Notes: generated from the letters alone by a model not told the origin. Numbered from the stretch's first letter, positions 14,789-61,192 are shown. The stretch is DNA of 64,000 nt from Candidatus Omnitrophota bacterium (GCA_030650275.1 JAUSEK010000023.1:107581-171580); one strand, 5' to 3'. Numbers and translations: made by a program.

Positions 14789-14816
14789 TTGCAAGTGGGC
14801 GGGTTTTCTGTATAAT
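14789..14816 (+). promoter_or_regulatory. Promoter TTGCAA-16-TATAAT ending 6 nt before the ATG at 14823 (leaderless transcript predicted)
   Basis: The hexamers sit at 14789-14794 and 14811-16. The start codon A falls at the expected +1 position. Confidence 0.45.
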
Positions 14817-14822
14817 GCACCC

Positions 14823-15836
14823 ATGATTTCTCTCGGCGTCATCGGTTGCGGTCATTGGGGACCCAACCATGTCCGTGTTTTTTCCCAGTTGACGGCCTCG
14901 CGTGTCGTCCGGTGCGCAGACCCCGACGAAAAACGCCTGGCATTCGTCCGCGCGCTTTTTCCCGCTGTTGAAACCACGACGGACTATACGCGGATCCTCA
15001 AAGATCCCGGCGTTGACGCGGTGGTCATTGCCGCGCCCACTGATCTGCATTTTAAATTGACCAGGGAGGCGCTGGAGGCGGGCAAGCATGTCCTTTGCGA
15101 AAAACCCCTGTCGCTTGACCCAGATGAGTGTCTTAAGCTGGGCGATCTGGCCCGCAAGCAGGGCAAGGTCCTGATGGCCGGGCATGTTTTTGTTTTCAAC
15201 CGGGGCATTGTCAAGATGCGCGAGTACATCCAGGGCGGAGAATTAGGGGCATTGCATTACGCCCATAGCGAGCGCACCAATCTGGGCCCGTTCCGTTACG
15301 ACGTCAATGCCTTGTGGGACCTGGCCCCGCACGACATTTCCATTTTCAATTACCTGTTTGACAGTTGTCCGGTGAGCGTTTCGGCCCGCGGGCATAAATG
15401 CCTGGGCAAGGTCCTGGAAGACCTGGCCTTTGCCACCCTTGATTATCCCAATGATGTCATGGTCAATATCCATGTCAGCTGGCTTGACCCCAGGAAGGTG
15501 CGCCAGATCACCATCGTCGGCGCCCAGAAAATGGTGTCCTGGGACGACCTGGACAACGACGGGTCCATCAAACTTTACGACAAGCACGTTGAGAAAACAT
15601 CCGTTTATTACGAGACCTATGGCGAGTTCCAGCTGTTGTCCCGTGAGGGGAACGTCACCATCCCCAAGATCGGTTTCCACGAGCCGCTCAAGGACCAGGC
15701 GCAGTATTTTATCGACTGTGTTGTCAAAAACGTCCCGCCGGTTTTGGCGGATGCCCAAAGGGCTTATGATGTTGTGCGCACCCTGTGCGCCATCCAGGAG
15801 TCCATGGACCGCAAAGGCGAATTGGTCAAACTATGA
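14823..15836 (+). CDS. Gfo/Idh/MocA-family NAD(P)-dependent sugar oxidoreductase (WbpB-like)
   Basis: It has the N-terminal Rossmann fold GVIGCGHWG, the family's C-terminal domain, and a sugar-modification context. Confidence 0.8.
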   Translation: MISLGVIGCGHWGPNHVRVFSQLTASRVVRCADPDEKRLAFVRALFPAVETTTDYTRILKDPGVDAVVIAAPTDLHFKLTREALEAGKHVLCEKPLSLDPDECLKLGDLARKQGKVLMAGHVFVFNRGIVKMREYIQGGELGALHYAHSERTNLGPFRYDVNALWDLAPHDISIFNYLFDSCPVSVSARGHKCLGKVLEDLAFATLDYPNDVMVNIHVSWLDPRKVRQITIVGAQKMVSWDDLDNDGSIKLYDKHVEKTSVYYETYGEFQLLSREGNVTIPKIGFHEPLKDQAQYFIDCVVKNVPPVLADAQRAYDVVRTLCAIQESMDRKGELVKL

Positions 15837-35106: not shown

Positions 35107-38097
35107 ATGAACCCCTTGTTCCGCCAGATCATTTGCTCTATTTTGACCGTTACGTTTGCGTTAACAGCGGTCCCGCCTCTGCACGCCCAAGAGATTTACC
35201 TGCCCCAACCCGGCGTCCGCATTGGCCTAAGCCCCCAATTCAACCCCGCCGTCCTCAAAGGCCTCAAGGTCCATCCCGACAATCCGTTTCGGTTTGATTT
35301 CATATTGGATACCGGTGACGTAGAGACGCAGCATGCTGCGTCTCTACAAAACGAATCAATGAAATTGATCAAATATTTCCTCGCCTCTTTAACCATCCCC
35401 GAACAAGACCTCTGGGTCAACCTGTCTCCTTATGAGAAGGATAGAATTGTTCCTCAATCCTTTGGTCAAACCGAGATGGGACGTGACCTATTAGCCCAGG
35501 ATTATCTGCTCAAGCAGATCACCGCATCACTAATCTACCCAGAGGATGAATTCGGCAAGATCTTCTGGAAGAGGGTCTATGAAGAAGCCAACAAGAGATT
35601 TGGAACAACCAACATCCCGGTCAATACCTTCAACAAGGTCTGGATCGTGCCAGAGAAGGCCGTAGTCTATGAGAACGCGCAAGCAGGCACGGCGTATGTG
35701 GTAGAAAGCCGATTGAAGGTGATGTTGGAAGAGGATTATCTTGCCTTGGCCAACAACCAACCGCCTACCAGGGGACATGTTCCGCAGAACGTGTCCCCAA
35801 GCACCCTGCCAACCTATCAACCATTGAATCCGAAAGCATCCCAGGGAAATCCCCTTAACGCCTCACCAGAGATTAACGCATTAGGTTCTCAAATAGTCAG
35901 AGAGATTGTCATTCCCGCATTAACCAAAGAAATCAACGAAAACAAGAACTTTGCCCAACTAAGACAGGTCTACAACTCCCTTATCTTGGCCACCTGGTAC
36001 AAGAAGAAGATCAAGGACAGCATTCTCTCTCAAGTGTATGCAGATAAGAATAAGATTTCAGGCCTAACGCCAACCAGGGGACATGTTGCTGGCACCGCTA
36101 GTGCCAGTAACGTGTCCCCAAGCACGTTGCCAACCAACCCAGCATTGAATGCGAAAGCACCCCAGGGAAACCCGCCCAACGATGTCGAAGCCATCTACCA
36201 GCAATACCTCACCGCCTTCAAGAAAGGGGTCTACAACTACATCAAAGAAGAGCAGGACCCTGTGACCCGACAGATGATTCCAAGGAAGTATTTTTCGGGT
36301 GGCGTGAAATTCGGTGATGTGGCGATGGTGACTACAAAGGATGCGGCCATGCTTCCGCAGGTGGCTTCCGATCACTCCGCTATTGTTCAGACAAATTTAA
36401 ATCCAGCTGGCCGGGCGATGGCGGCTATACAGGATTGGGAAAGAGTGCGTGCTCGGGCAAAAATTTCTTTCTTCGTCAAAACATTTTTTATTATGGGAGG
36501 GACGGTTATCGGTGCAAGTGCGTTTAAGCATTACAGTCAGAACGTATACGCGGTTCTCGCAATGGGGATGTTGTACGGCTTCACAACCTTCCGTTTTGTT
36601 ATGGACGACTACTTAATAGGAAAAAGTGAACGTGCTGGGGACTATATTACGATTTCAAGGCAACCGAAGGAAAGGGACTCTTTGGGTATTCATGTCGTCC
36701 TAAATTTAAAGGGGCTGGCCGGACAACAGGAGAACGCATATACACTTATCGCGGAAGATGTGGTTAAGGTTGTTTATGAGCTTGTTGCGAACTGGAAACA
36801 AGAGGGTGGGCTTAAAGAAGTAAAATATATTACAGGAGATTCCCCGTTGCTTGTTCAGGAGAGGAGGGGTATGGGAGCAAGGTTTATGCCTAGCATAAAG
36901 CGTCTGCTCAATAAGATCGGCGTGGGGGATGAGGATATTGAAGTGCACAAACGTCAAAGAACAGATAAAAGGCAGTTTATGTTGTGGAAGATATTGTATC
37001 CGCGTGTATGGATGATAAATAATAAAACATATAGTGGCAGATTCAGGATGAATGTTTCCACGCCCGAGGCTCAGCAGGCCTTGCTTGAAAAATTGAGACC
37101 TGTTTATGATGCGTTGAACGGCGTTGATCCTAATGATCCGGAAAAGATGGCCAAGAAAAGGCGAATTTTGTTCGGCGGGAGTTTGGCGCGGGATGAAGAA
37201 GCCCAAGTGGACGATGCCACAGCCTCCGTGCAGGCCGGGCCGGACGCGGCGATGTCAAGGTCACAACAGTCAGAAAATATTAAAAGCATTGCTGATTGGA
37301 TTGATGCTCTCAAGAAAGACAATTATGTTTTGTTCCACCAAACAATGGATGATTCAGCTGAAAGAATATTACAGAGTTATTTTAAAACCAGCCCTCAAAT
37401 TAATGGGATTGCCGCAGTATATACTCGAGAAATTTTGATGGGAAATCTTCAATGGATGTCTATGTCTGCGGGAGAATTTCAGAGACGTCGTTTGGAACAG
37501 GACGGTCCCCTCGGACAAATTCACAAAGGTGCAAATGCGATAGTTGTTCTTGTTTTTCCAAAAAAAGAATTCGGAGGCGTAGATCGTTTTATCCGACTTT
37601 TCGAAGTCTTTGAGATGATTGATGAAAAAATAGGCGGCGATTGGCTTCAAGAAACAGGAGGTATGGGTGTCCCCAATAAATATGTAGCTGGATATATCCA
37701 TCCCACTGATCAATCCATTGATGTGTATATAAATCCAAATAGCGTTGTTAAACCTTTATCTGATGAGCATTGGGGATTGTTAGGCGTTGGAAATGAAAAT
37801 TTGATTGTTTTAAGGGATCAGGCGATAAAAAGTGTTATGAGCAAACAATCCGGCCCTGGAGGTATTGACTTTAAATCCGACAAGGTGGACAGCGCTTTTG
37901 AAATAAAAAGAGAGCCGGAACAAATGGGGACACGTAACGAGTACATGTCCCCATTTGTCGACCCGGTCATGCTGGAGCAATTACAAAACGCCCCGGGGTT
38001 CGTGCCGGTGATCATCAACATCCAGCCCATGACGGATTTGCGGATGTTTTTGGGGCTTCAAGAAAATAAGCCGGAAAAAGAGGAGGCTGTGTTATAA
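35107..38097 (+). CDS. Large secreted protein (996 aa), paralog A: conserved N-terminal domain + variable middle + C-terminal GGIDFKSDKVDSAF...PGFVPVIIN module
   Basis: It has a Sec signal peptide (…ALTAVPPLHAQE). It is a paralog of the 55409..60343 product and contains an internal tandem repeat. Confidence 0.7.
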   Translation: MNPLFRQIICSILTVTFALTAVPPLHAQEIYLPQPGVRIGLSPQFNPAVLKGLKVHPDNPFRFDFILDTGDVETQHAASLQNESMKLIKYFLASLTIPEQDLWVNLSPYEKDRIVPQSFGQTEMGRDLLAQDYLLKQITASLIYPEDEFGKIFWKRVYEEANKRFGTTNIPVNTFNKVWIVPEKAVVYENAQAGTAYVVESRLKVMLEEDYLALANNQPPTRGHVPQNVSPSTLPTYQPLNPKASQGNPLNASPEINALGSQIVREIVIPALTKEINENKNFAQLRQVYNSLILATWYKKKIKDSILSQVYADKNKISGLTPTRGHVAGTASASNVSPSTLPTNPALNAKAPQGNPPNDVEAIYQQYLTAFKKGVYNYIKEEQDPVTRQMIPRKYFSGGVKFGDVAMVTTKDAAMLPQVASDHSAIVQTNLNPAGRAMAAIQDWERVRARAKISFFVKTFFIMGGTVIGASAFKHYSQNVYAVLAMGMLYGFTTFRFVMDDYLIGKSERAGDYITISRQPKERDSLGIHVVLNLKGLAGQQENAYTLIAEDVVKVVYELVANWKQEGGLKEVKYITGDSPLLVQERRGMGARFMPSIKRLLNKIGVGDEDIEVHKRQRTDKRQFMLWKILYPRVWMINNKTYSGRFRMNVSTPEAQQALLEKLRPVYDALNGVDPNDPEKMAKKRRILFGGSLARDEEAQVDDATASVQAGPDAAMSRSQQSENIKSIADWIDALKKDNYVLFHQTMDDSAERILQSYFKTSPQINGIAAVYTREILMGNLQWMSMSAGEFQRRRLEQDGPLGQIHKGANAIVVLVFPKKEFGGVDRFIRLFEVFEMIDEKIGGDWLQETGGMGVPNKYVAGYIHPTDQSIDVYINPNSVVKPLSDEHWGLLGVGNENLIVLRDQAIKSVMSKQSGPGGIDFKSDKVDSAFEIKREPEQMGTRNEYMSPFVDPVMLEQLQNAPGFVPVIINIQPMTDLRMFLGLQENKPEKEEAVL

Positions 38098-38098
38098 T
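38090..38098 (+). promoter_or_regulatory. Extended -10 promoter (TGtTATAAT) 8 nt upstream of the nucleotidyltransferase ATG
   Basis: Read directly from the sequence. It predicts a near-leaderless transcript. Confidence 0.35.
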
Positions 38099-38106
38099 TC
38101 TTAAAT

Positions 38107-38652
38107 ATGGATTTCGAGGCGGTTTTTAAAATAATCCTGGGACAATTTGGCAAATATAACGTCCGTTTCGCGATCATAGGGGGTTTTGCCCTGCACGCGG
38201 CGGGTTTTACCAGGGCCACCAAAGACATTGATTTCCTGCTGCATCATGAAGACAAGGCGAAAGTCAAGGCAGTCCTTGCCTCTTTGGGGTATGAAGCCAT
38301 TCATGAAAGCGAGGACGCCGCGAATTTCTTGAATCGATTGTCCGAGTTGGGACAGATCGATTTTATCATAGCCCGTCGTAAATATGCGTTGGCGATGCTC
38401 GAACGCGCCAAGCCGTATGAGATCATTAAAGGGCATACGGTCAATGTCATTGTGCCGGAAGACATTATTGGTTTGAAGATCCAGGCCTTGCACAATGATC
38501 CCGCGCGGTATGCGCAGGACATGGCGGACATTCAATGGCTGATCAAAAATCACCGGGAACAGCTGAATGTGGGACTTTTACGGGAGTATTTTGATCTATT
38601 CAACTGTGCTGATCAATTGGAAAGAATTTTAAACGAGACCGACCATGCTTAG
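38107..38652 (+). CDS. Polβ-superfamily nucleotidyltransferase (AbiEii- / ANT(2'')-like minimal NTase)
   Basis: It has the GG-x9-R.T.DIDFL motif (FAIIGGFALHAAGFTRATKDIDFLL) and is 181 aa. Confidence 0.5.
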   Translation: MDFEAVFKIILGQFGKYNVRFAIIGGFALHAAGFTRATKDIDFLLHHEDKAKVKAVLASLGYEAIHESEDAANFLNRLSELGQIDFIIARRKYALAMLERAKPYEIIKGHTVNVIVPEDIIGLKIQALHNDPARYAQDMADIQWLIKNHREQLNVGLLREYFDLFNCADQLERILNETDHA

Positions 38653-38848
38653 CGACGAAGAAAAAAGAGAAATGCTGGAAGACGCCCGAAGCGAGTCCCG
38701 CCGCAAGGCATTTGCCCGGGCGAGAACACAGGTCTTCAGTCAGCCGATGACCTGGGAACAGTATTTTCGTTTTTTGCGCGGCGTTGTGAATCTTTTTCCT
38801 CAAAAAGAGTCCTTTAAAAAGATCGAGGGAAGTGCGTTTAAGCTCTAA
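38645..38848 (+). CDS. Small 67-aa protein overlapping the NTase gene by 8 nt (putative partner protein)
   Basis: The two ORFs overlap and appear translationally coupled. I recognise no family for it. Confidence 0.3.
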   Translation: MLSDEEKREMLEDARSESRRKAFARARTQVFSQPMTWEQYFRFLRGVVNLFPQKESFKKIEGSAFKL

Positions 38849-38867
38849 ATCAGCGTATCTATTCGCT

Positions 38868-38895
38868 TTACATTTAAAAACCGTCTCGTTATAAT
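38868..38895 (+). promoter_or_regulatory. Promoter TTACAT-16-TATAAT with -10 ending 9 nt before the hisG ATG
   Basis: Read directly from the sequence. The predicted leader is very short. Confidence 0.45.
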
Positions 38896-54528: not shown

Positions 54529-55341
54529 GTGTTGGCTAATAAAACTATCGGCCTTATAGCTGGGAACAGGCAGTTCCCTTTTTTATTTGCCCGGGCCGCC
54601 AAAGACCAGGGTTACAAGGTCGTGGCCGCGGGGGTTTGGGGGGACACCTCCCCGCTATTGGCCGCGTTCGCCGACGATTTCCGGTATTTTTACGTCGGAC
54701 AGATGAAAAAGATGATCGCGTATTTTAAGGACAAGGGGGTCACGCAGGTCATCATGGCCGGACAGGTCAACCCCGATCATCTTTTCGATCCCCGTCTTGC
54801 CCTTGACGAAGAATTCGCTTCCCTGGAGGGATCCCTCAAAGACCGCAAGGCCGACACCATTTTTTCCGCCGTTGCCGGCAGATTGGGCGAACACGGCATG
54901 GCCTTGCTGGATTCAACATTCCTGCTCAAGAAATACCTGGCCCCCAAAGGCACATTGACCCACCGCGGTCCGACGCTGGCGGAACTGGCGGACATGGAAT
55001 TCGGCTTCACCATCGCCAAACTCATGGGCGGCATCGACGTCGGGCAGACGGTCGTGGTCAAGGAAAAGGCCATTGTCGCCATCGAGGCCATGGAAGGCAC
55101 GGACAATGCCATCGCACGCGGCGGCGCCATCGCGCGCGGCGGGGCCGTGGTGGTCAAGACCGCCAAACCCGCCCAGGACAACCGTTTTGATGTTCCTGTT
55201 GTGGGCCCGCAGACCATCCGCGTCATGGCCCGCGTCAAAGCCGCCTGCTTGAGCATTGAAGCCGGTAAGACCCTTCTCATTGACCGCGAAGCAACCGTCC
55301 GTCTGGCCGACCGTCACGGGATCTGCATCGTCGCTGCCTAG
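54529..55341 (+). CDS. lpxI: UDP-2,3-diacylglucosamine hydrolase LpxI (DUF1009 family), GTG start
   Basis: An AAGGAGG Shine-Dalgarno lies 4 nt upstream. It has the conserved N-terminus ...IGLIAGNRQFP... and the Lpx cluster context. Confidence 0.7.
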   Translation: MLANKTIGLIAGNRQFPFLFARAAKDQGYKVVAAGVWGDTSPLLAAFADDFRYFYVGQMKKMIAYFKDKGVTQVIMAGQVNPDHLFDPRLALDEEFASLEGSLKDRKADTIFSAVAGRLGEHGMALLDSTFLLKKYLAPKGTLTHRGPTLAELADMEFGFTIAKLMGGIDVGQTVVVKEKAIVAIEAMEGTDNAIARGGAIARGGAVVVKTAKPAQDNRFDVPVVGPQTIRVMARVKAACLSIEAGKTLLIDREATVRLADRHGICIVAA

Positions 55342-55408
55342 AAAACGCTTTCCCGAAAACCCCTCCAGGGCTTGTTTTAGGTGTATTTATATTCCATACT
55401 TGTAGTAT

Positions 55409-58400
55409 ATGAAATACCCCGTATTCCGTCGTTTAACCTGCGCTTTGGTCATTATTACCTTTACGGCAACGATGACCCCAGCTTTGCACGCACAGGAAAT
55501 TTCGCTTCCTCAGCCCGGCGTCCGCGTATCCTTAAGCCCCGCCTTTAACCCCCCAGTCCTCAAAGGCCTCAAGGTCCATTCCGATAATCCGTTTCGTTTT
55601 GATTTTATCCTTGATCAAGGTGATTCCCTCCCCCTTGTGGGGAGGGCCAGGGAGGGGGACAAACAAGAACAACTCAAACAAGAAGCCAACAAACTCATCA
55701 AATACTTCCTCGCCTCTCTGACCGTGCCAGAGAAAGACCTCTGGGTCAACCTCTCTCCCTATGAGAAAGACCGTATCGTCCCCACATCTTTCGGTCAAAC
55801 CGAGATGGGAAGGGATCTTCTGGCCCAGGACTATCTGCTTAAGCAAATAACCGCATCTCTGATCTATCCAGAGGATGAATTGGGTAAGACCTTCTGGAAC
55901 AGGATCTACCAAGAAGCATCCAGGAGATACCATACAACCAACATCCCGGTCAATACATTCAACAAGGTATGGATCGTACCCGAGAAAGCCGTAGTGTACG
56001 AGAACGCGCAGGCGGGAACGGCTTACGTTGTCGAATCCAGATTGAAGGTGATGCTAGAAGAAGATTATTTGGCATTATCCAAAAATACCGTAGGGGCGCA
56101 ATTTATTGCGCCCGATAAGGGTTCGATGAATCGAACCCCTACGGATGTTAATTCGTTGGGTTCCCAGATTATCCGTGAGATCGTCATCCCCGCCTTAACC
56201 AAGGAAATCAACGAAGGAAAGAACTTCGCCCAACTCCGTCAGGTCTACAATTCTCTGATCCTTGCCACCTGGTACAAGAAGAAGATCAAGGATAGTATTC
56301 TCAATAAAGTTTATTCCGATAGGAATAAAGTTTTAGGCATTGGTTACGATACGCCAACCAGGGGACATGTTGCTGGCACCGCCAGTGCCAGTAACGTGTC
56401 CCCAAGCACGCTGCCAAGCGACCCAGGGTTGAATGCGAAAGCACCCCAGGGAAACCCGCCCAACGATGTCGAAGCCATCTACCAGCAATACCTCACCGCC
56501 TTCAAGAAAGGCGTCTACAACTACATCAAAGAAGAACAAGATCCCATCACCCAACAGATTATCCCGAGGAAATATTTTTCGGGTGGTGTTAAATGGGGCA
56601 TGGCAATGCTTCAAACAACAACAGATCAGGCCATGCTCCCGCAAGTAGTTTCCGATCATGCCGCTATTGTTCAGACAAATTTAAATCCAGCCGACCGTGC
56701 GATATTCAGTAATATCACCAGTAGGGCTGATTCAGCAGCTGCTAGCCGAAGAATTCTATCGTTTAATCAAGCTAAAATGGCATTTGCCGACTTCTTGCTA
56801 GGCAGAGATGGAAAAAGCAAACAAATTGTTGATTTGCCAAGACTAGTGGATAGCCTCAATGCAATGAATAAACCTACAAGAGAAAAATTCCTAGAGTGGA
56901 CTGTGAATATGGATGATAATTGGTATCAGTATGGTTTATCCAATCATAGTAAAGCTAAATATCGTTCGCTGGCATTATTGTTAATGGAAATGGAAAGCCA
57001 TAACCGAAATGCTCCGGCTATGAAACTTTGGAATTTTCTTTCCCAACGGTTTGGAGCGTCTCGTTTTCACACAGAACAATGGGTATCTTGGCAACCTGCA
57101 ATTGACCAAAATCTGTTAAAGGATGTATTACGCATTGCGAAACGATATGGGCTGCGCGCTCATGGGACATTGAATTTTAACATGTTCGGGATCAATAAAT
57201 ATTCTGCTCTCAACGGTTTCTTTCAGAATGAATGGGGAATGCTTAATATCATGATCGATGGGAATCTGTCTCGGGGAAGCATTGGCCCTTTAGCGCCTGT
57301 TGAAGATGAAGGGAATCCGAATGTCGCGGCAGCATTATATGGCCCTTTTTATATTATTGTTGATAAACGTCAAGATGAAGTGCTGCCTGAGAGGCGTTTG
57401 AATGAGCATGACAGAGTTTCTCGAAAGGATCAGTTGATTTATCTTGTCCCAAGCGAAAAAGAAGTACTTTTTTTCAGTGAAGGTATTCGTGAAGCTTTGC
57501 ATTTGGGCCTCATTGATCAGGGAATCGCTGACGAGGTATTATCAAAACTTATGACGTATGGACAGTTCGTGATTAATCAAGCCGCATTGGCTAATCTTGA
57601 AACTCCCGGTGGCATCGACTTCAAATCTGATAAAGTGGACAGCGCCCAATTAAGCCAAGACCGGGCGATGATGACCAGACGAAATTTTCTGTCTTCGTCG
57701 GTTGCGGCAGGTATTGGACTGGTATTACCAAATGCCACCCTTGGGCAATCACTCGCAGGCTTTGGCAGGACGCCTATACCTGATAAACCAGATCAGGTCC
57801 AAGTACGATCTATTACAGGTTTTGAAACCCATGGCAATCGATACAATCTCACTTTTGAGGGGTTTAATCATAATCAGGGCGTAATAAAATCGGCGGGGCG
57901 GCAAGCGCGGGAAGTGGGTCATTTTAATTTCTTTATTTATCCCAATGGGGGATCGATACTAAGGATTGTCGGAGAATTCCCGGGGATCAATGAATCCGCG
58001 CACTTCTTTTCAGTTAACCGGGATCGGGATAAGATCAATTATATAGGCTCCACCGATAACTCTGCAGCGTTAGGGGATATTGCTTTAAACGAAGGGTTAT
58101 GGGTGCTTCTCGGTGAGTATTTAACGACAGGTTCTTTGCCTTCGGAATTTGACCAACAATTTAATATTTTATTTCCTCGTTGGGCGCCACTGAATTCTTT
58201 GACCGATCGATCGCCGTTTAATTTCTCAACAGGGCTCGTTAATGTTTTATCTCCGCGTTTTGTTCCTCCGGATGATAAAACGCTTTTGCTCGTCGGGCAG
58301 CAGCGAGACATCATTGAGGGTTATGTTCGCGCTGTTGGAGTGCCCGGTGGGTTTATGTCCTATACATCCATTAAACATTTGGAGGGATTAACCACGTTGG

Positions 58401-60343
58401 ATGATTACGGCGGCGGAATTCAAGATGCGCAGGACCTGGTTGATCTGTATCCGAATACCGTCTTACAACTTGGTTTGTACATGGTGGATGAATTGAATAA
58501 TGTAAATAGCGGTATATACGATGCGAATATTCGAAAGTTGGGGGAGTGGATCAAGCAAACAAGGCGTCCGGTGTATTTGCGCATTGGCTATGAATTTGAT
58601 TTGCCCGACAATAAGTATAAGCCGCAAGAATATATAAAGGCCTATCAAAAGATCGTCGACATATTGAGACAGCAAAAGGTAACGAATGTATCGTTTGTAT
58701 GGCATTCTGCAGTTTATCCGAGCCAAGAAAAATCTGCGCAGGACTGGTATCCGGGGGATGAATATGTTGATTGGGTCGCGATGACCCGTATGGATCCTTC
58801 ACAAGATTTACAAGGGACTCGGTTAGCTCAGTGGGCCAGAGGGCACAACAAACCTTTTATGATCGCGGAGGCATCTCCGATGGGTCGGAAGACTACGGAG
58901 GAAAAGAAAGTATGGTTCGACACTCTTTTGCCATTTATCAGACAAAACAATATCAAGGCCCTTGGGTATATCAACAGTAATTGGGATGCATTGGGTTTAT
59001 TTTGGGATAGGGGCTGGGGGGACCAGCAAGTGCAGAATGATCCGGCAATTCGTCAATTGTGGATGGACAGAGTCATCCAGGATGGTTCTTATTTGCAATC
59101 GTCAGCAGATCTATTCAGGCAATACCTCAATTTTAACCCAAGCCTTGACCGGGCGATGGCGGCCGCAGATCAGGCTGGGCCGGACGCGGCGATGAAGGTG
59201 ACGCGGCGTACTCTTTTGAGAGGCGCGGGCGCTACGGTGGCGGTGAGGGTATTGGAGGGGGCGTTTGGCAGCCTTGCACTGCAGGCAAGCGGGAACACCA
59301 ACGCTCCCGACAAGAATAGTGTTCTGGCGATGTCTTGGGATATCCTTGATAAGACGGCACTTCGGATGAATTTACCGAAAGCATTGCTTGAGAACATCAA
59401 GGCCGCGCTTCTGGAAGAGGCCACTAAAATATACTCAGAATACAAAGACACGCTTCCTCCAAGAGTACGCTCGATCCTCGGGGATGATTTTAGAAAGCCG
59501 GTTCCTTTTTACGCGCGGTGGCTTGTCAGCAGGTTTATCAAGAATGAGATCGAGCCAAGGATAAAATATCTCAGTAAATACACCGCCTTTCTTGACCCGG
59601 ATGAAGTGGGTATCTTAGATTCTGAGCCGGATTTGGTGAAATATTTCGTTAAAAGAACCGTGAGGTTATACGCTGAAAGAGGTCCGGATTGGATGACCGA
59701 GGAAGAAGCGGCTAAAAGCGTGATCGGTCTGTTTGCTTACTTGATCAAAGAAAGTAATGGCAAGTTTCCTCTTTCGCAGGAGGAAATTGGCAATTATTAT
59801 TATTTATTAAAGAGGGATAAACTCAATACCCTTACAGATTTCGATTTAAAGAATGTAAGGTTGGTGGAGGGTTATCGCGAAAGATTAAAGAAATATTACC
59901 GGATAAAATTTGCTCCGAATGAATTGCGTTGGGATATACAAAGTCAGAGAGGGGAAAGAGAGATTGTTCGGGTGGAATATCTACCGACCCATGATAATGT
60001 GCAAGTTATTGGATATGGTCTTGAAGAGTATAGTAAAATGGATCGTCGAGTGATCGCACTTTTGAGGTTGCGTGTTTATTTATCGGAGAAAAACGGGGGC
60101 GACCATCCGCAGACATCCACAGGCGGTATTGATTTCAATGCCGACAAGGTGGACAGCGCTTTTGCGGTGAAAAATAGCGGCGGCGCGATCAAATTTAACA
60201 TCGACCCCGCCATGCTCCAGCAATTACAGGATTCCCCCGGTTTCGTGCCCGTGATCATCAACGTCAGTCCGCTCAAAGACCTGCCTGCATTTTTGGGATC
60301 AAACGACCCTGTTCCAGTGTCTTCCAAAGCCGCTGCCCTTTAG
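55409..60343 (+). CDS. Large mosaic secreted protein (1644 aa), paralog B: paralog-A-like N-terminal unit + Tat-signal/GH26-like unit + Tat-signal/unknown unit with C-terminal GGIDFNADKVDSAF...PGFVPVIIN module
   Basis: It has a Sec signal peptide and a ~440-aa N-terminal domain homologous to 35107..38097. Internal twin-arginine signal-like segments start at 57668 (MMTRRNFLSS...) and 59204 (MKVTRRTLLRGAGATVAV...). GH26-like motifs (VYLRIGYEFD, WYPGDEYVDWV) are present. Confidence 0.65.
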   Translation: MKYPVFRRLTCALVIITFTATMTPALHAQEISLPQPGVRVSLSPAFNPPVLKGLKVHSDNPFRFDFILDQGDSLPLVGRAREGDKQEQLKQEANKLIKYFLASLTVPEKDLWVNLSPYEKDRIVPTSFGQTEMGRDLLAQDYLLKQITASLIYPEDELGKTFWNRIYQEASRRYHTTNIPVNTFNKVWIVPEKAVVYENAQAGTAYVVESRLKVMLEEDYLALSKNTVGAQFIAPDKGSMNRTPTDVNSLGSQIIREIVIPALTKEINEGKNFAQLRQVYNSLILATWYKKKIKDSILNKVYSDRNKVLGIGYDTPTRGHVAGTASASNVSPSTLPSDPGLNAKAPQGNPPNDVEAIYQQYLTAFKKGVYNYIKEEQDPITQQIIPRKYFSGGVKWGMAMLQTTTDQAMLPQVVSDHAAIVQTNLNPADRAIFSNITSRADSAAASRRILSFNQAKMAFADFLLGRDGKSKQIVDLPRLVDSLNAMNKPTREKFLEWTVNMDDNWYQYGLSNHSKAKYRSLALLLMEMESHNRNAPAMKLWNFLSQRFGASRFHTEQWVSWQPAIDQNLLKDVLRIAKRYGLRAHGTLNFNMFGINKYSALNGFFQNEWGMLNIMIDGNLSRGSIGPLAPVEDEGNPNVAAALYGPFYIIVDKRQDEVLPERRLNEHDRVSRKDQLIYLVPSEKEVLFFSEGIREALHLGLIDQGIADEVLSKLMTYGQFVINQAALANLETPGGIDFKSDKVDSAQLSQDRAMMTRRNFLSSSVAAGIGLVLPNATLGQSLAGFGRTPIPDKPDQVQVRSITGFETHGNRYNLTFEGFNHNQGVIKSAGRQAREVGHFNFFIYPNGGSILRIVGEFPGINESAHFFSVNRDRDKINYIGSTDNSAALGDIALNEGLWVLLGEYLTTGSLPSEFDQQFNILFPRWAPLNSLTDRSPFNFSTGLVNVLSPRFVPPDDKTLLLVGQQRDIIEGYVRAVGVPGGFMSYTSIKHLEGLTTLDDYGGGIQDAQDLVDLYPNTVLQLGLYMVDELNNVNSGIYDANIRKLGEWIKQTRRPVYLRIGYEFDLPDNKYKPQEYIKAYQKIVDILRQQKVTNVSFVWHSAVYPSQEKSAQDWYPGDEYVDWVAMTRMDPSQDLQGTRLAQWARGHNKPFMIAEASPMGRKTTEEKKVWFDTLLPFIRQNNIKALGYINSNWDALGLFWDRGWGDQQVQNDPAIRQLWMDRVIQDGSYLQSSADLFRQYLNFNPSLDRAMAAADQAGPDAAMKVTRRTLLRGAGATVAVRVLEGAFGSLALQASGNTNAPDKNSVLAMSWDILDKTALRMNLPKALLENIKAALLEEATKIYSEYKDTLPPRVRSILGDDFRKPVPFYARWLVSRFIKNEIEPRIKYLSKYTAFLDPDEVGILDSEPDLVKYFVKRTVRLYAERGPDWMTEEEAAKSVIGLFAYLIKESNGKFPLSQEEIGNYYYLLKRDKLNTLTDFDLKNVRLVEGYRERLKKYYRIKFAPNELRWDIQSQRGEREIVRVEYLPTHDNVQVIGYGLEEYSKMDRRVIALLRLRVYLSEKNGGDHPQTSTGGIDFNADKVDSAFAVKNSGGAIKFNIDPAMLQQLQDSPGFVPVIINVSPLKDLPAFLGSNDPVPVSSKAAAL

Positions 60344-60511
60344 GTGAGAAATTAATACCTAATCCACATTTGGATTTACTAAACGAAATTCTACTTGCAC
60401 ATAGACAGGCAGGCGAAATTTATAGATTTAAGGTTTTTCTTGCGTCATTTCAATGCGCGTGGTATCTTTAATTGTACAATTGTATATTATTAATGGACGG
60501 CAGGAGGGGTC

Positions 60512-60910
60512 ATGCGTTCGATCGTCGTTGATACTTCGGTTGTTTTGGCCGTTGCTTTGGGGGAACCAGAGAAGTTGAAGCTGGTTCGGATGACCAAAGG
60601 CGTTGCTTTATTGACCCCTGCTTCAATGAAATGGGAAATAGGTAACGCGCTTTCTGTTATGTTTAAGAAGAAACGGATCACGCTCAATGAAGCAAAGAAA
60701 GTTTGGGGCATTTGTATGGATATTCCGCTGCAATATGTGGATGTCGACCCTGTCAGGTCCCTTGAAATAGCTTTTGAGGGTGATCTGTATGCCTATGACG
60801 CGTATATGATCGCGTGCTGCCTTGAACGCAAGGCGCCATTATTAACGTTGGATCAGGTTTTATCGAAAAAGGCCGGGCTTTTTAACGTGTCCATGGAGGT
60901 TGTCATATGA
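60512..60910 (+). CDS. vapC: PIN-domain ribonuclease toxin (VapC-like)
   Basis: It starts MRSIVVDTSVV... with the conserved acidic residues of the PIN fold. It is 132 aa. Confidence 0.7.
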   Translation: MRSIVVDTSVVLAVALGEPEKLKLVRMTKGVALLTPASMKWEIGNALSVMFKKKRITLNEAKKVWGICMDIPLQYVDVDPVRSLEIAFEGDLYAYDAYMIACCLERKAPLLTLDQVLSKKAGLFNVSMEVVI

Positions 60911-61128
60911 AAATTTTTACCTATTCTCAATTTCGTCAAAAACTTGCCACCATTCTTGACTTAGCGCGCAGGGAAGGGCGGGTCATGATCAAACGCAAGG
61001 ATGGCTCCTTGTTTAATTTGTCCCCCGCAAGGCGCAACAACGGATCGCCTCTGGATGTGCGTTCGCTTAAAACAAAAGTCACGACCGTTGATATTATCAA
61101 CAGTGTCCGTGAAAGCCGTCAGCAGTAA
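60907..61128 (+). CDS. Phd/YefM-like antitoxin, encoded downstream of the toxin (reversed order)
   Basis: 73 aa. Its start overlaps the PIN stop as ATGA. The N-terminus MKIFTYSQFRQKLATILD... is typical of Phd/YefM. Confidence 0.45.
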   Translation: MKIFTYSQFRQKLATILDLARREGRVMIKRKDGSLFNLSPARRNNGSPLDVRSLKTKVTTVDIINSVRESRQQ

Positions 61129-61163: not shown

Positions 61164-61192
61164 TTGACACTCCCGTTGTATTTCTATATAAT
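61164..61192 (+). promoter_or_regulatory. Exact consensus promoter TTGACA-17-TATAAT upstream of lysS
   Basis: Read directly from the sequence. Confidence 0.5.

Follow-up and report, generated by a model that had tools for sequence, protein, structure and literature searches.

The stretch of DNA analysed here (hereafter the window) comprises 64,000 nucleotides (nt) of Candidatus Omnitrophota bacterium (GCA_030650275.1, JAUSEK010000023.1:107581-171580) and contains two large paralogous genes, A and B, each followed directly by a pair of small genes; all positions given below are those of the whole stretch. Behind paralog A (35107..38097, plus strand, 996 amino acids (aa)) lies a nucleotidyltransferase (NTase), a putative toxin of 181 aa (38107..38652, plus strand), which is followed by a 67-aa partner and putative antitoxin (38645..38848, plus strand). 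Behind paralog B (55409..60343, plus strand, 1644 aa), a 132-aa VapC-family PIN toxin (60512..60910, plus strand) precedes a 73-aa Phd/YefM-like antitoxin (60907..61128, plus strand). Every open reading frame (ORF) and junction described in an earlier note on this DNA was recovered in place. Paralog A is the context of the NTase cassette and paralog B that of the PIN-Phd cassette; they are not parts of the modules. The system type of the first pair was left open in the earlier note; the evidence now favours a MenT1-like toxin accompanied by a small partner of a new kind.

The NTase starts 9 nt past the stop codon of paralog A and belongs to the MenT1-like DUF1814/AbiEii superfamily. Pfam AbiEii (PF08843) matched its residues 16-164 (39.9 bits, cut-off 22.5; E 5.9e-10), in keeping with its first description as an AbiEii/ANT-like NTase of the polymerase beta (pol-beta) type, and NTP_transf_5 and DUF2204 were also above their own cut-offs. 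The motif GG-x9-R.T.DIDFL, quoted in that description, is present (GGFALHAAGFTRATKDIDFL), and the key residues are G25, G26, R36, T38, D40, D42, D85, K124, R134, D138 and D141. As defined by Dy et al. (PMC3985639), DUF1814 motifs I/II read hG[G/S]x9-15DhD, motif II including an Arg, motif III is a Lys with hydrophobic flanks (KLxAaxxR-like) and motif IV is a +DxxD pentad. The corresponding segments of the NTase are I-G25-G26-x13-D40-I-D42 with R36 (motifs I/II), G-L-K124-I-Q-A-L...R134 (motif III) and D138-M-A-D141 (motif IV). Comparison with 25 relatives indicated that G25, G26, R36, D40 and D42, then K124, Q126 and R134, and finally the D138-M-A-D141 motif are invariant. Immediately before D138, the window copy has Q, which it shares with MenT1 (QDRSD), while several relatives have R (RDMAD, RDLAD).

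When the Protein Data Bank (PDB) was searched with the family profile, the top-ranking solved relative was MenT1 of M. tuberculosis (8an4, E 1.4e-7). The same protein was the best Foldseek match (8an5_A, E 2.6e-10, template modelling (TM) scores 0.75/0.71) of an AlphaFold (AF2) model of the NTase with a predicted local distance difference test (pLDDT) score of 86.5. ANT(2'')-Ia, LnuA and TM1012 formed a second tier of matches (E 1e-6 to 4e-5), and neither profile nor fold searches clustered the NTase with housekeeping enzymes. In the profile alignment, T38 (R-A-T-K-D-I-D) is aligned on MenT1 T39 (R-F-T-R-D-V-D), the residue which is auto-phosphorylated on MenA1 binding (PMC11375011), and this position is S or T in 25/25 relatives. 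Some relatives already carry the NCBI name 'AbiEii/AbiGii toxin family', and a literature search on DUF2204/NTP_transf_5 returned nothing on this NTase family.

The second-tier fold matches would also suit a small-molecule enzyme of the ANT(2'')/Lnu type, acting on an antibiotic or a metabolite and followed by the downstream ORF by chance, and Pfam Aminoglyc_resit (PF10706) gave a borderline match to the N-terminal half only (21.1 against 21 bits). The curated NCBIfam model of ANT(2'')-Ia (NF000064), however, reached 12.8 bits for a cut-off of 350, which speaks against the resistance-type adenylyltransferase considered in the earlier note. MenT1 is the better match by sequence as well as by fold, DUF1814 motifs III and IV in the C-terminal part show no variation, and the tightly coupled, co-evolving partner described below is not a trait of resistance enzymes, so that we regard a small-molecule enzyme as extremely improbable. 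Resistance NTases are not known to come with a small, translationally coupled partner that co-evolves with them.

The Pfam AbiEii match, together with weak matches to PADLOC AbiEii models and the location of the cassette in compositionally atypical, variable DNA, would fit an abortive infection (Abi) or phage-defence system of the AbiE kind in which defence is the primary role. Canonical AbiE, one form of the Abi-type defence first considered, is not supported, since there is no AbiEi partner and the upstream gene encodes the 996-aa paralog A instead of an AbiEi/COG5340 winged helix-turn-helix (wHTH) protein. The NTase is moreover about 100 aa shorter than the matched PADLOC AbiEii models, of which only fragments align, and no other defence genes lie nearby in the window. 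A primary role in defence is thus distinctly unlikely; because AbiE itself acts via a toxin-antitoxin (TA) mechanism (PMC3985639), this alternative overlaps the explanation that we favour.

The partner gene overlaps the end of the NTase gene by 8 nt (ATGCTTAG). The best 80 NTase loci, which cover several phyla, were surveyed for such a gene, and a homologous ORF of 60-80 aa was found in 71 of them, starting 4-11 nt before the NTase stop codon and following the consensus MLSxxEKxEMLxDAxSxxRRxxFR...S(F/L)DxYxxFL...KL. The pairing of this ORF with the NTase, noticed earlier in the window alone, is therefore conserved. With a dN/dS ratio of 0.13-0.29 in the sense frame, the ORF evolves under purifying selection; the identities of NTases and of partners, compared pair by pair, co-varied (r=0.76; Mantel test, 0/2000 permutations). 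When a partner profile was run against 1.84 billion representative sequences, 301 members were recovered, practically all of them stand-alone proteins of 60-75 aa. From these sequence comparisons, the 67-aa ORF is a real gene and the dedicated partner of the NTase. The top match of the representative search, P0247 (1347 aa, 13 stretches), was rejected as a fusion, being a junk translation of tandem repeats.

An antisense ORF, also of 67 aa and thus equal in length to the partner gene, overlaps the latter on the minus strand (38600..38803). It is open in 25 of 60 relatives and is not the gene, because conservation as a protein is found in the plus frame only; gene callers choosing by length could nevertheless mis-call it.

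No family was assigned to the partner by Pfam on 66 members, and PADLOC and NCBIfam searches identified no relative; the PDB profile search yielded merely chance EF-hand-like matches (E≥0.02). The predicted structure (pLDDT 72.9) consists of a helix at residues 4-31, a second helix at residues 37-50 and a disordered tail of 17 residues. Although this tail is variable, it ends in a nearly invariant K/R-L/I, which is K-L in the window. MenA1, the 68-aa antitoxin of MenT1, has one helix of 32 aa and another that is shorter, and 17 of its residues are unresolved (PMC10435456).

The nearly invariant C-terminus contrasts with the dispensable C-terminus of MenA1 (PMC10435456) and could indicate that NTase and partner constitute a non-toxic pair serving regulation or modification, in which the NTase nucleotidylates the tail of the partner or some other target, or in which the roles are reversed as in MNT-HEPN, the NTase being the antitoxin. 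The NTase-first order is reminiscent of an enzyme gene that precedes the gene of a substrate or modulator, and DUF1814 proteins are not all toxic or linked to an antitoxin. A toxin role of the partner is, on the other hand, poorly compatible with the lack of an HEPN Rx4-6H motif, a Pfam match or a membrane segment, and the NTase has proven toxins as its nearest relatives in both sequence and fold. The patchy, multi-copy spread in variable contexts and the co-location with bona fide TA pairs also fit a selfish module better, and we consider a non-toxic pair unlikely.

The second cassette is separated from paralog B by an AT-rich spacer of 168 nt (60344..60511; GC 0.357), as reported before. Pfam PIN (PF01850) matched the first protein with 40.1 bits for a cut-off of 23.6, its homologs are named VapC, and the acidic quartet D7, E42, D96 and D114 is invariant in 14 sequences. 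The gene of the 73-aa Phd-like protein follows that of the toxin with a 4-nt overlap; the PF02604 match of this protein (25.7 bits) is below the cut-off of 29.8 and is restricted to residues 1-34. Partners of homologous PINs in six related loci (L164-L169) likewise gave unmarked or weak PF02604 matches in the same gene order. Since PIN precedes Phd in 6/6 of these loci, the toxin-first order is a property of this PIN subfamily, and the initial reading of the pair as PIN then Phd holds on both Pfam and locus comparison. P0187, a 205-aa database protein, combines PIN and PhdYeFM domains; it could stem from read-through in the annotation or be a true fusion of the toxin-first pair. Among the approximately 65 ORFs of the window, no other TA-type pair was found by inspection of the ORF list and Pfam searches on selected ORFs. 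The placement of such pairs behind both paralogs goes beyond coincidence, and it recurs in relatives.

Relatives of the NTase were present in 514 species-level genomes from many phyla. The family is scattered over Omnitrophota, Elusimicrobiota, Melainabacteria, Saganbacteria, Desulfobacterota, Clostridia and one archaeal metagenome-assembled genome (MAG), and one MAG carries two diverged copies (L008, L022). Across most of the 80 related loci the genes upstream of the NTase are mutually unrelated, and in L172 and L173 an NTase with 82% identity lies 3 nt behind a FabV-like gene. The large-gene family to which paralogs A and B belong was recognised by its C-terminal ..GGID..PGFVPVI..P..L..FLG domain. 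The NTase pair is located 7-26 nt behind a gene of this family in the window, in L171 (NTase 98% identical), L081-84 (82%), L001, L002 and L003/L129; in L038 the distance to the family member is about 125 nt. The genes downstream of these pairs differ.

Comparison of orthologous loci revealed that the NTase cassette is subject to insertion or deletion (indel) polymorphism. L085 and L086 are orthologous to the window locus, with 95-96% identity in hisG and 89-90% in a tetratricopeptide repeat (TPR) protein, and with a SurA-like neighbour of 87% identity in L085 only. In both of them the large gene (1634 or 1554 aa) is followed after 23 nt by hisG, without the NTase cassette, and the junction of the large gene with hisG in L004 likewise lacks it. 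The sequences are collinear up to ..DLRMFLGL, after which the window and L084 have a common cassette-linked tail (QENKPEKEEAVL against QENQDDQQASVL) and L085/L086 have another tail, which overlaps the -35 box of hisG. Collinearity thus ends just past FLGL, which places the left indel boundary within the conserved 3' coding part of the large gene.

A reciprocal situation was observed for the second cassette. In L165 and L166, from two independent metagenomes and with PINs of 94% identity, about 4.85 kb of paralog B is missing and PIN-Phd is kept; 8 nt after the LpxI stop codon come the final ~156 nt of paralog B, then the spacer and PIN-Phd, with lysS next in the longer L165. Aligned with the window (55341..60344), L165:1281-1444 and L166:1-196 may represent either a deletion or the ancestral empty state, and their boundary falls exactly at the start of the C-terminal-domain coding region. 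Taken together, the synteny of L085/L086 and L165/L166 demonstrates that the cassettes are variably present and are not fixed core genes, one of the outcomes envisaged in the earlier note.

L004 carries an NTase pair elsewhere, 1.8 kb upstream of the large gene and not behind it. The stop codon of this pair touches the start codon of a 228-aa ORF (L004:1203-1889), which appears metallophosphoesterase-like by eye.

To survey the slot behind large-family genes, metagenomes were scanned with an alignment of four C-terminal-domain sequences. Pfam-confirmed pairs occupying the slot were HicB-HicA (L099, L148), BrnT-CopG (L131), YoeB-YefM (L151) and Phd-PIN (L158), and the NTase pair was again found behind other family members (L084, L129); many ordinary genes occupy the slot likewise. 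With two adjacent small same-strand ORFs taken as a crude proxy for a TA pair, and control slots taken from the same loci, 10 of 56 distinct loci scored positive behind the large gene, whereas away from it 10 of 213 slots did (odds ratio 4.4, Fisher p=0.0024). This enrichment of TA pairs is suggestive, not rigorous. Of the two explanations first offered for the shared position of the cassettes, a hot-spot at the 3' ends is thus supported, by synteny and by the other TA families in the slot. Addiction modules stabilising the loci are not, because the large genes stay mosaic and can even be lost next to a PIN-Phd cassette that is kept.

Other small gene pairs were seen in this slot. L098:4522-5219 and L125:5121-5756 (minus strand) encode a retropepsin-like protease of the Asp_protease_2 family together with an ORF of ~82-86 aa behind large-family genes. 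The family match is above cut-off in L125 (E 1.9e-10) and below it in L098 (E 0.0059, 17.7 bits against 24.3), and the aspartyl-protease and small-ORF pair may be another two-gene module of the slot. In L130 (5275-6134), overlapping ORFs of 154 and 133 aa without a Pfam match lie behind a C-terminal remnant of the large family.

The recurrence of the NTase pair behind family members, with differing genes downstream, could alternatively mean that the cassettes are tied to the large proteins, as a modifier, a chaperone, an immunity-like pair or stabilising addiction modules. The arrangement of the junction would favour such a tie, since the stop codon of paralog A lies inside the TGnTATAAT box of the cassette and the junction GGCTGTGTTATAAT is common to the window and L001. 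Against it, about 70 of the 80 NTase loci have unrelated upstream genes, a pair with an NTase of 82% identity follows the FabV-like gene of L172/L173, orthologous large genes lack the cassette and unrelated TA families share the same slot. The body of paralog B can also be deleted with PIN-Phd kept, and the large genes are mosaic beside NTases of 98% identity. Overall, a tie of this kind is highly improbable, and for the closest clade a direct functional tie is unlikely.

The box that contains the stop codon of paralog A (TGTTATAAT, 38090..38098, plus strand) resembles an extended -10 element and ends 8 nt upstream of the NTase ATG. TGnTATAAT-N7-8-ATG is kept before the NTase in all closest relatives; the spacing is of the leaderless type, and the box may function as a promoter. 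At the right edge of the inserted segment, a promoter-like site of hisG (38867..38895, plus strand; TTTACA-17-TATAAT) holds a second copy (38888..38895) of GTTATAAT, which is first seen at the cassette box. A target-site duplication was considered for this direct repeat and rejected: as TGnTATAAT precedes the NTase in other contexts too, the repeat is better explained by two -10-type boxes, one of the cassette and one of hisG. Likewise, a promoter-like site of lysS with 12/12 matches to TTGACA-17-TATAAT (61164..61192, plus strand) lies 3' of the PIN-Phd cassette. TATAAT-N6-10-ATG occurs six times in the window for 1.15 expected, which suggests that leaderless-type promoters are frequent in this genome. 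The sites are at 14811, 31600, 34979 (minus strand), 38093, 38890 and 48353; at least three, those of the ORF at 14823, of the NTase and of hisG, coincide with the start of a listed ORF.

Paralog A consists of a signal peptide, a conserved N-domain of ~430 aa, a mosaic middle and a conserved C-terminal domain, and did not match any Pfam family. The paralogy of the two large genes, proposed earlier, is real, with 73% identity across the N-terminal 447 aa and 47% across the C-terminal 81 aa. They are, however, large (1.0-1.6 kaa) and not "giant" by the standards of Omnitrophota, in which the published "giant genes" (>10 kaa) are a different class. A literature search for TA modules beside Omnitrophota giant genes returned nothing on this large-gene family. 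The C-terminal-domain coding region, as delimited by alignments, spans 37933..38097 (plus strand) and encodes ..IDPxMLEQLQNAPGFVPVIINIQPMTDLRxFLG... GC content at third codon positions was 0.48-0.51 in the large genes (0.51 in paralog A), 0.51-0.57 in both cassettes and 0.65-0.75 in the flanking core genes. The named relatives of the window genes are without exception from Candidatus Omnitrophota.

The large-gene family is strongly modular. The ~430-aa N-domain has no Pfam match and the C-terminal domain measures ~55 aa; the mosaic middle contains a GH26-like segment in paralog B and PP2C in L081. In paralog B, an internal GGIDFKSDKVDSA motif is followed by internal signals resembling those of twin-arginine translocation (TAT), and QAGPDAAM is a recurring linker. 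This architecture looks like fused or shuffled modules, or like a processed polyprotein. Composition is mosaic and differs even among strains in which the NTases and neighbouring genes are 98% identical.

The explanation that we favour, with a probability of roughly 60%, is that both pairs are self-contained, horizontally mobile TA-type cassettes, that the slot behind the large genes is permissive and recombination-prone without a functional tie to the large proteins, and that the NTase pair is MenAT1-like. Each cassette would have settled where a large mosaic gene ends and before the strong promoter of the core gene that follows (hisG or lysS), their shared position being that of a permissive site adjoining the conserved 3' coding region. 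The NTase would be the growth-inhibiting component of cassette 1 (38107..38848) and, by analogy with MenT1/3/4, could extend the 3' acceptor ends of tRNAs and so block their charging. It would be neutralised by its translationally coupled, helical 67-aa partner, which could occlude the active site, induce T38 to auto-phosphorylate, or do both. Cassette 2 would operate as a VapC(PIN)-Phd type II pair with the toxin first.

Several observations weigh against this explanation. In at least six genomes the NTase pair lies directly behind a large-family gene via a conserved junction, which leaves a functional link of the cassette to the large gene a residual probability. The NTase-partner family was not found on sequenced plasmids and was almost absent from viral contigs, so that mobility is deduced from the patchy distribution and the indels only. 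The size-based slot proxy depends on mechanical ORF calls and includes at least one false positive (L089), and its loci are phylogenetically non-independent. With respect to the NTase, PADLOC AbiEii models gave partial, weak matches only (E 4.9e-4 to 5.4e-3), DUF1814 proteins are not all toxins (PMC7450476), and the toxin-first order is opposite to that of every characterised DUF1814 system, MenAT and AbiE included. As for the partner, the PDB profile search with 66 sequences retrieved no MenA1 chain at E≤10, and Foldseek found nothing better than E 3.9 for a moderately confident model built on seven sequences. The likeness in shape between this model and MenA1 is best taken as an analogy, not as homology, such a shape being generic among small helical proteins.

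A bolder proposal, which we put forward tentatively and regard as rather doubtful, is that the conserved 3' coding region is a portable homology arm or landing pad, and that the NTase pair is a widespread toxin-first TA family whose partner has a new interface. Through recombination at this arm, paralogs and strains would exchange the mosaic bodies of their secreted proteins, downstream DNA would be dragged along, and TA cassettes would therefore accumulate and spread at that position. The homology-arm idea is drawn from a few junction alignments.

No major concept is changed by these results, since the components are recognisable members of known superfamilies. The MenT/AbiEii superfamily nevertheless gains an unannotated branch, with at least 514 species genomes, 301 partner representatives, the opposite gene order and an unrelated partner. 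The downstream partner is unannotated and the toxin-first NTase architecture is undescribed in the literature searched. This branch lends itself naturally to testing how general antitoxin-induced auto-phosphorylation is among MenT/AbiEii toxins, and the window provides a testable case of TA cassettes collecting at the 3' end of hypervariable, modular genes for secreted proteins in uncultivated Omnitrophota.

Among characterised systems, MenAT1 (MenT1/Rv0078A and MenA1/Rv0078B) is the closest to the NTase pair. Both have a short DUF1814 NTase (181 aa here, 196 aa in MenT1; TM 0.75), the R-x-T-[KR]-D-h-D loop including the phosphoacceptor Thr, and the QDxxD form of motif IV. Both also have overlapping genes and a partner of similar size (67 and 68 aa) without a DNA-binding domain, made of a long helix, a shorter helix and a disordered C-terminus of ~17 residues, which is predicted here and observed in MenA1. 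In contrast to MenAT1, the toxin comes first here, identity to MenT1 is only 16-18%, the partner does not match MenA1 and ends in a conserved K-L; the NTase family occurs in Omnitrophota, Elusimicrobiota, Melainabacteria and others, and not in actinobacteria. AbiE, a type IV TA or Abi system, has in common with the NTase pair the PF08843 superfamily, motifs I-IV and the bicistronic organisation; it differs by its AbiEi/COG5340 wHTH partner and by an NTase ~100 aa longer, the partner here being tiny and downstream. ANT(2'')-Ia, LnuA and TM1012 share the minimal pol-beta NTase fold and a similar size. Finally, cassette 2 resembles VapBC systems with Phd/YefM-type antitoxins in its PIN with an intact D-E-D-D quartet, its small Phd-like partner and the 4-nt overlap; in canonical vapBC the antitoxin gene comes first, whereas in the window and in L164-L169 it is the toxin gene.

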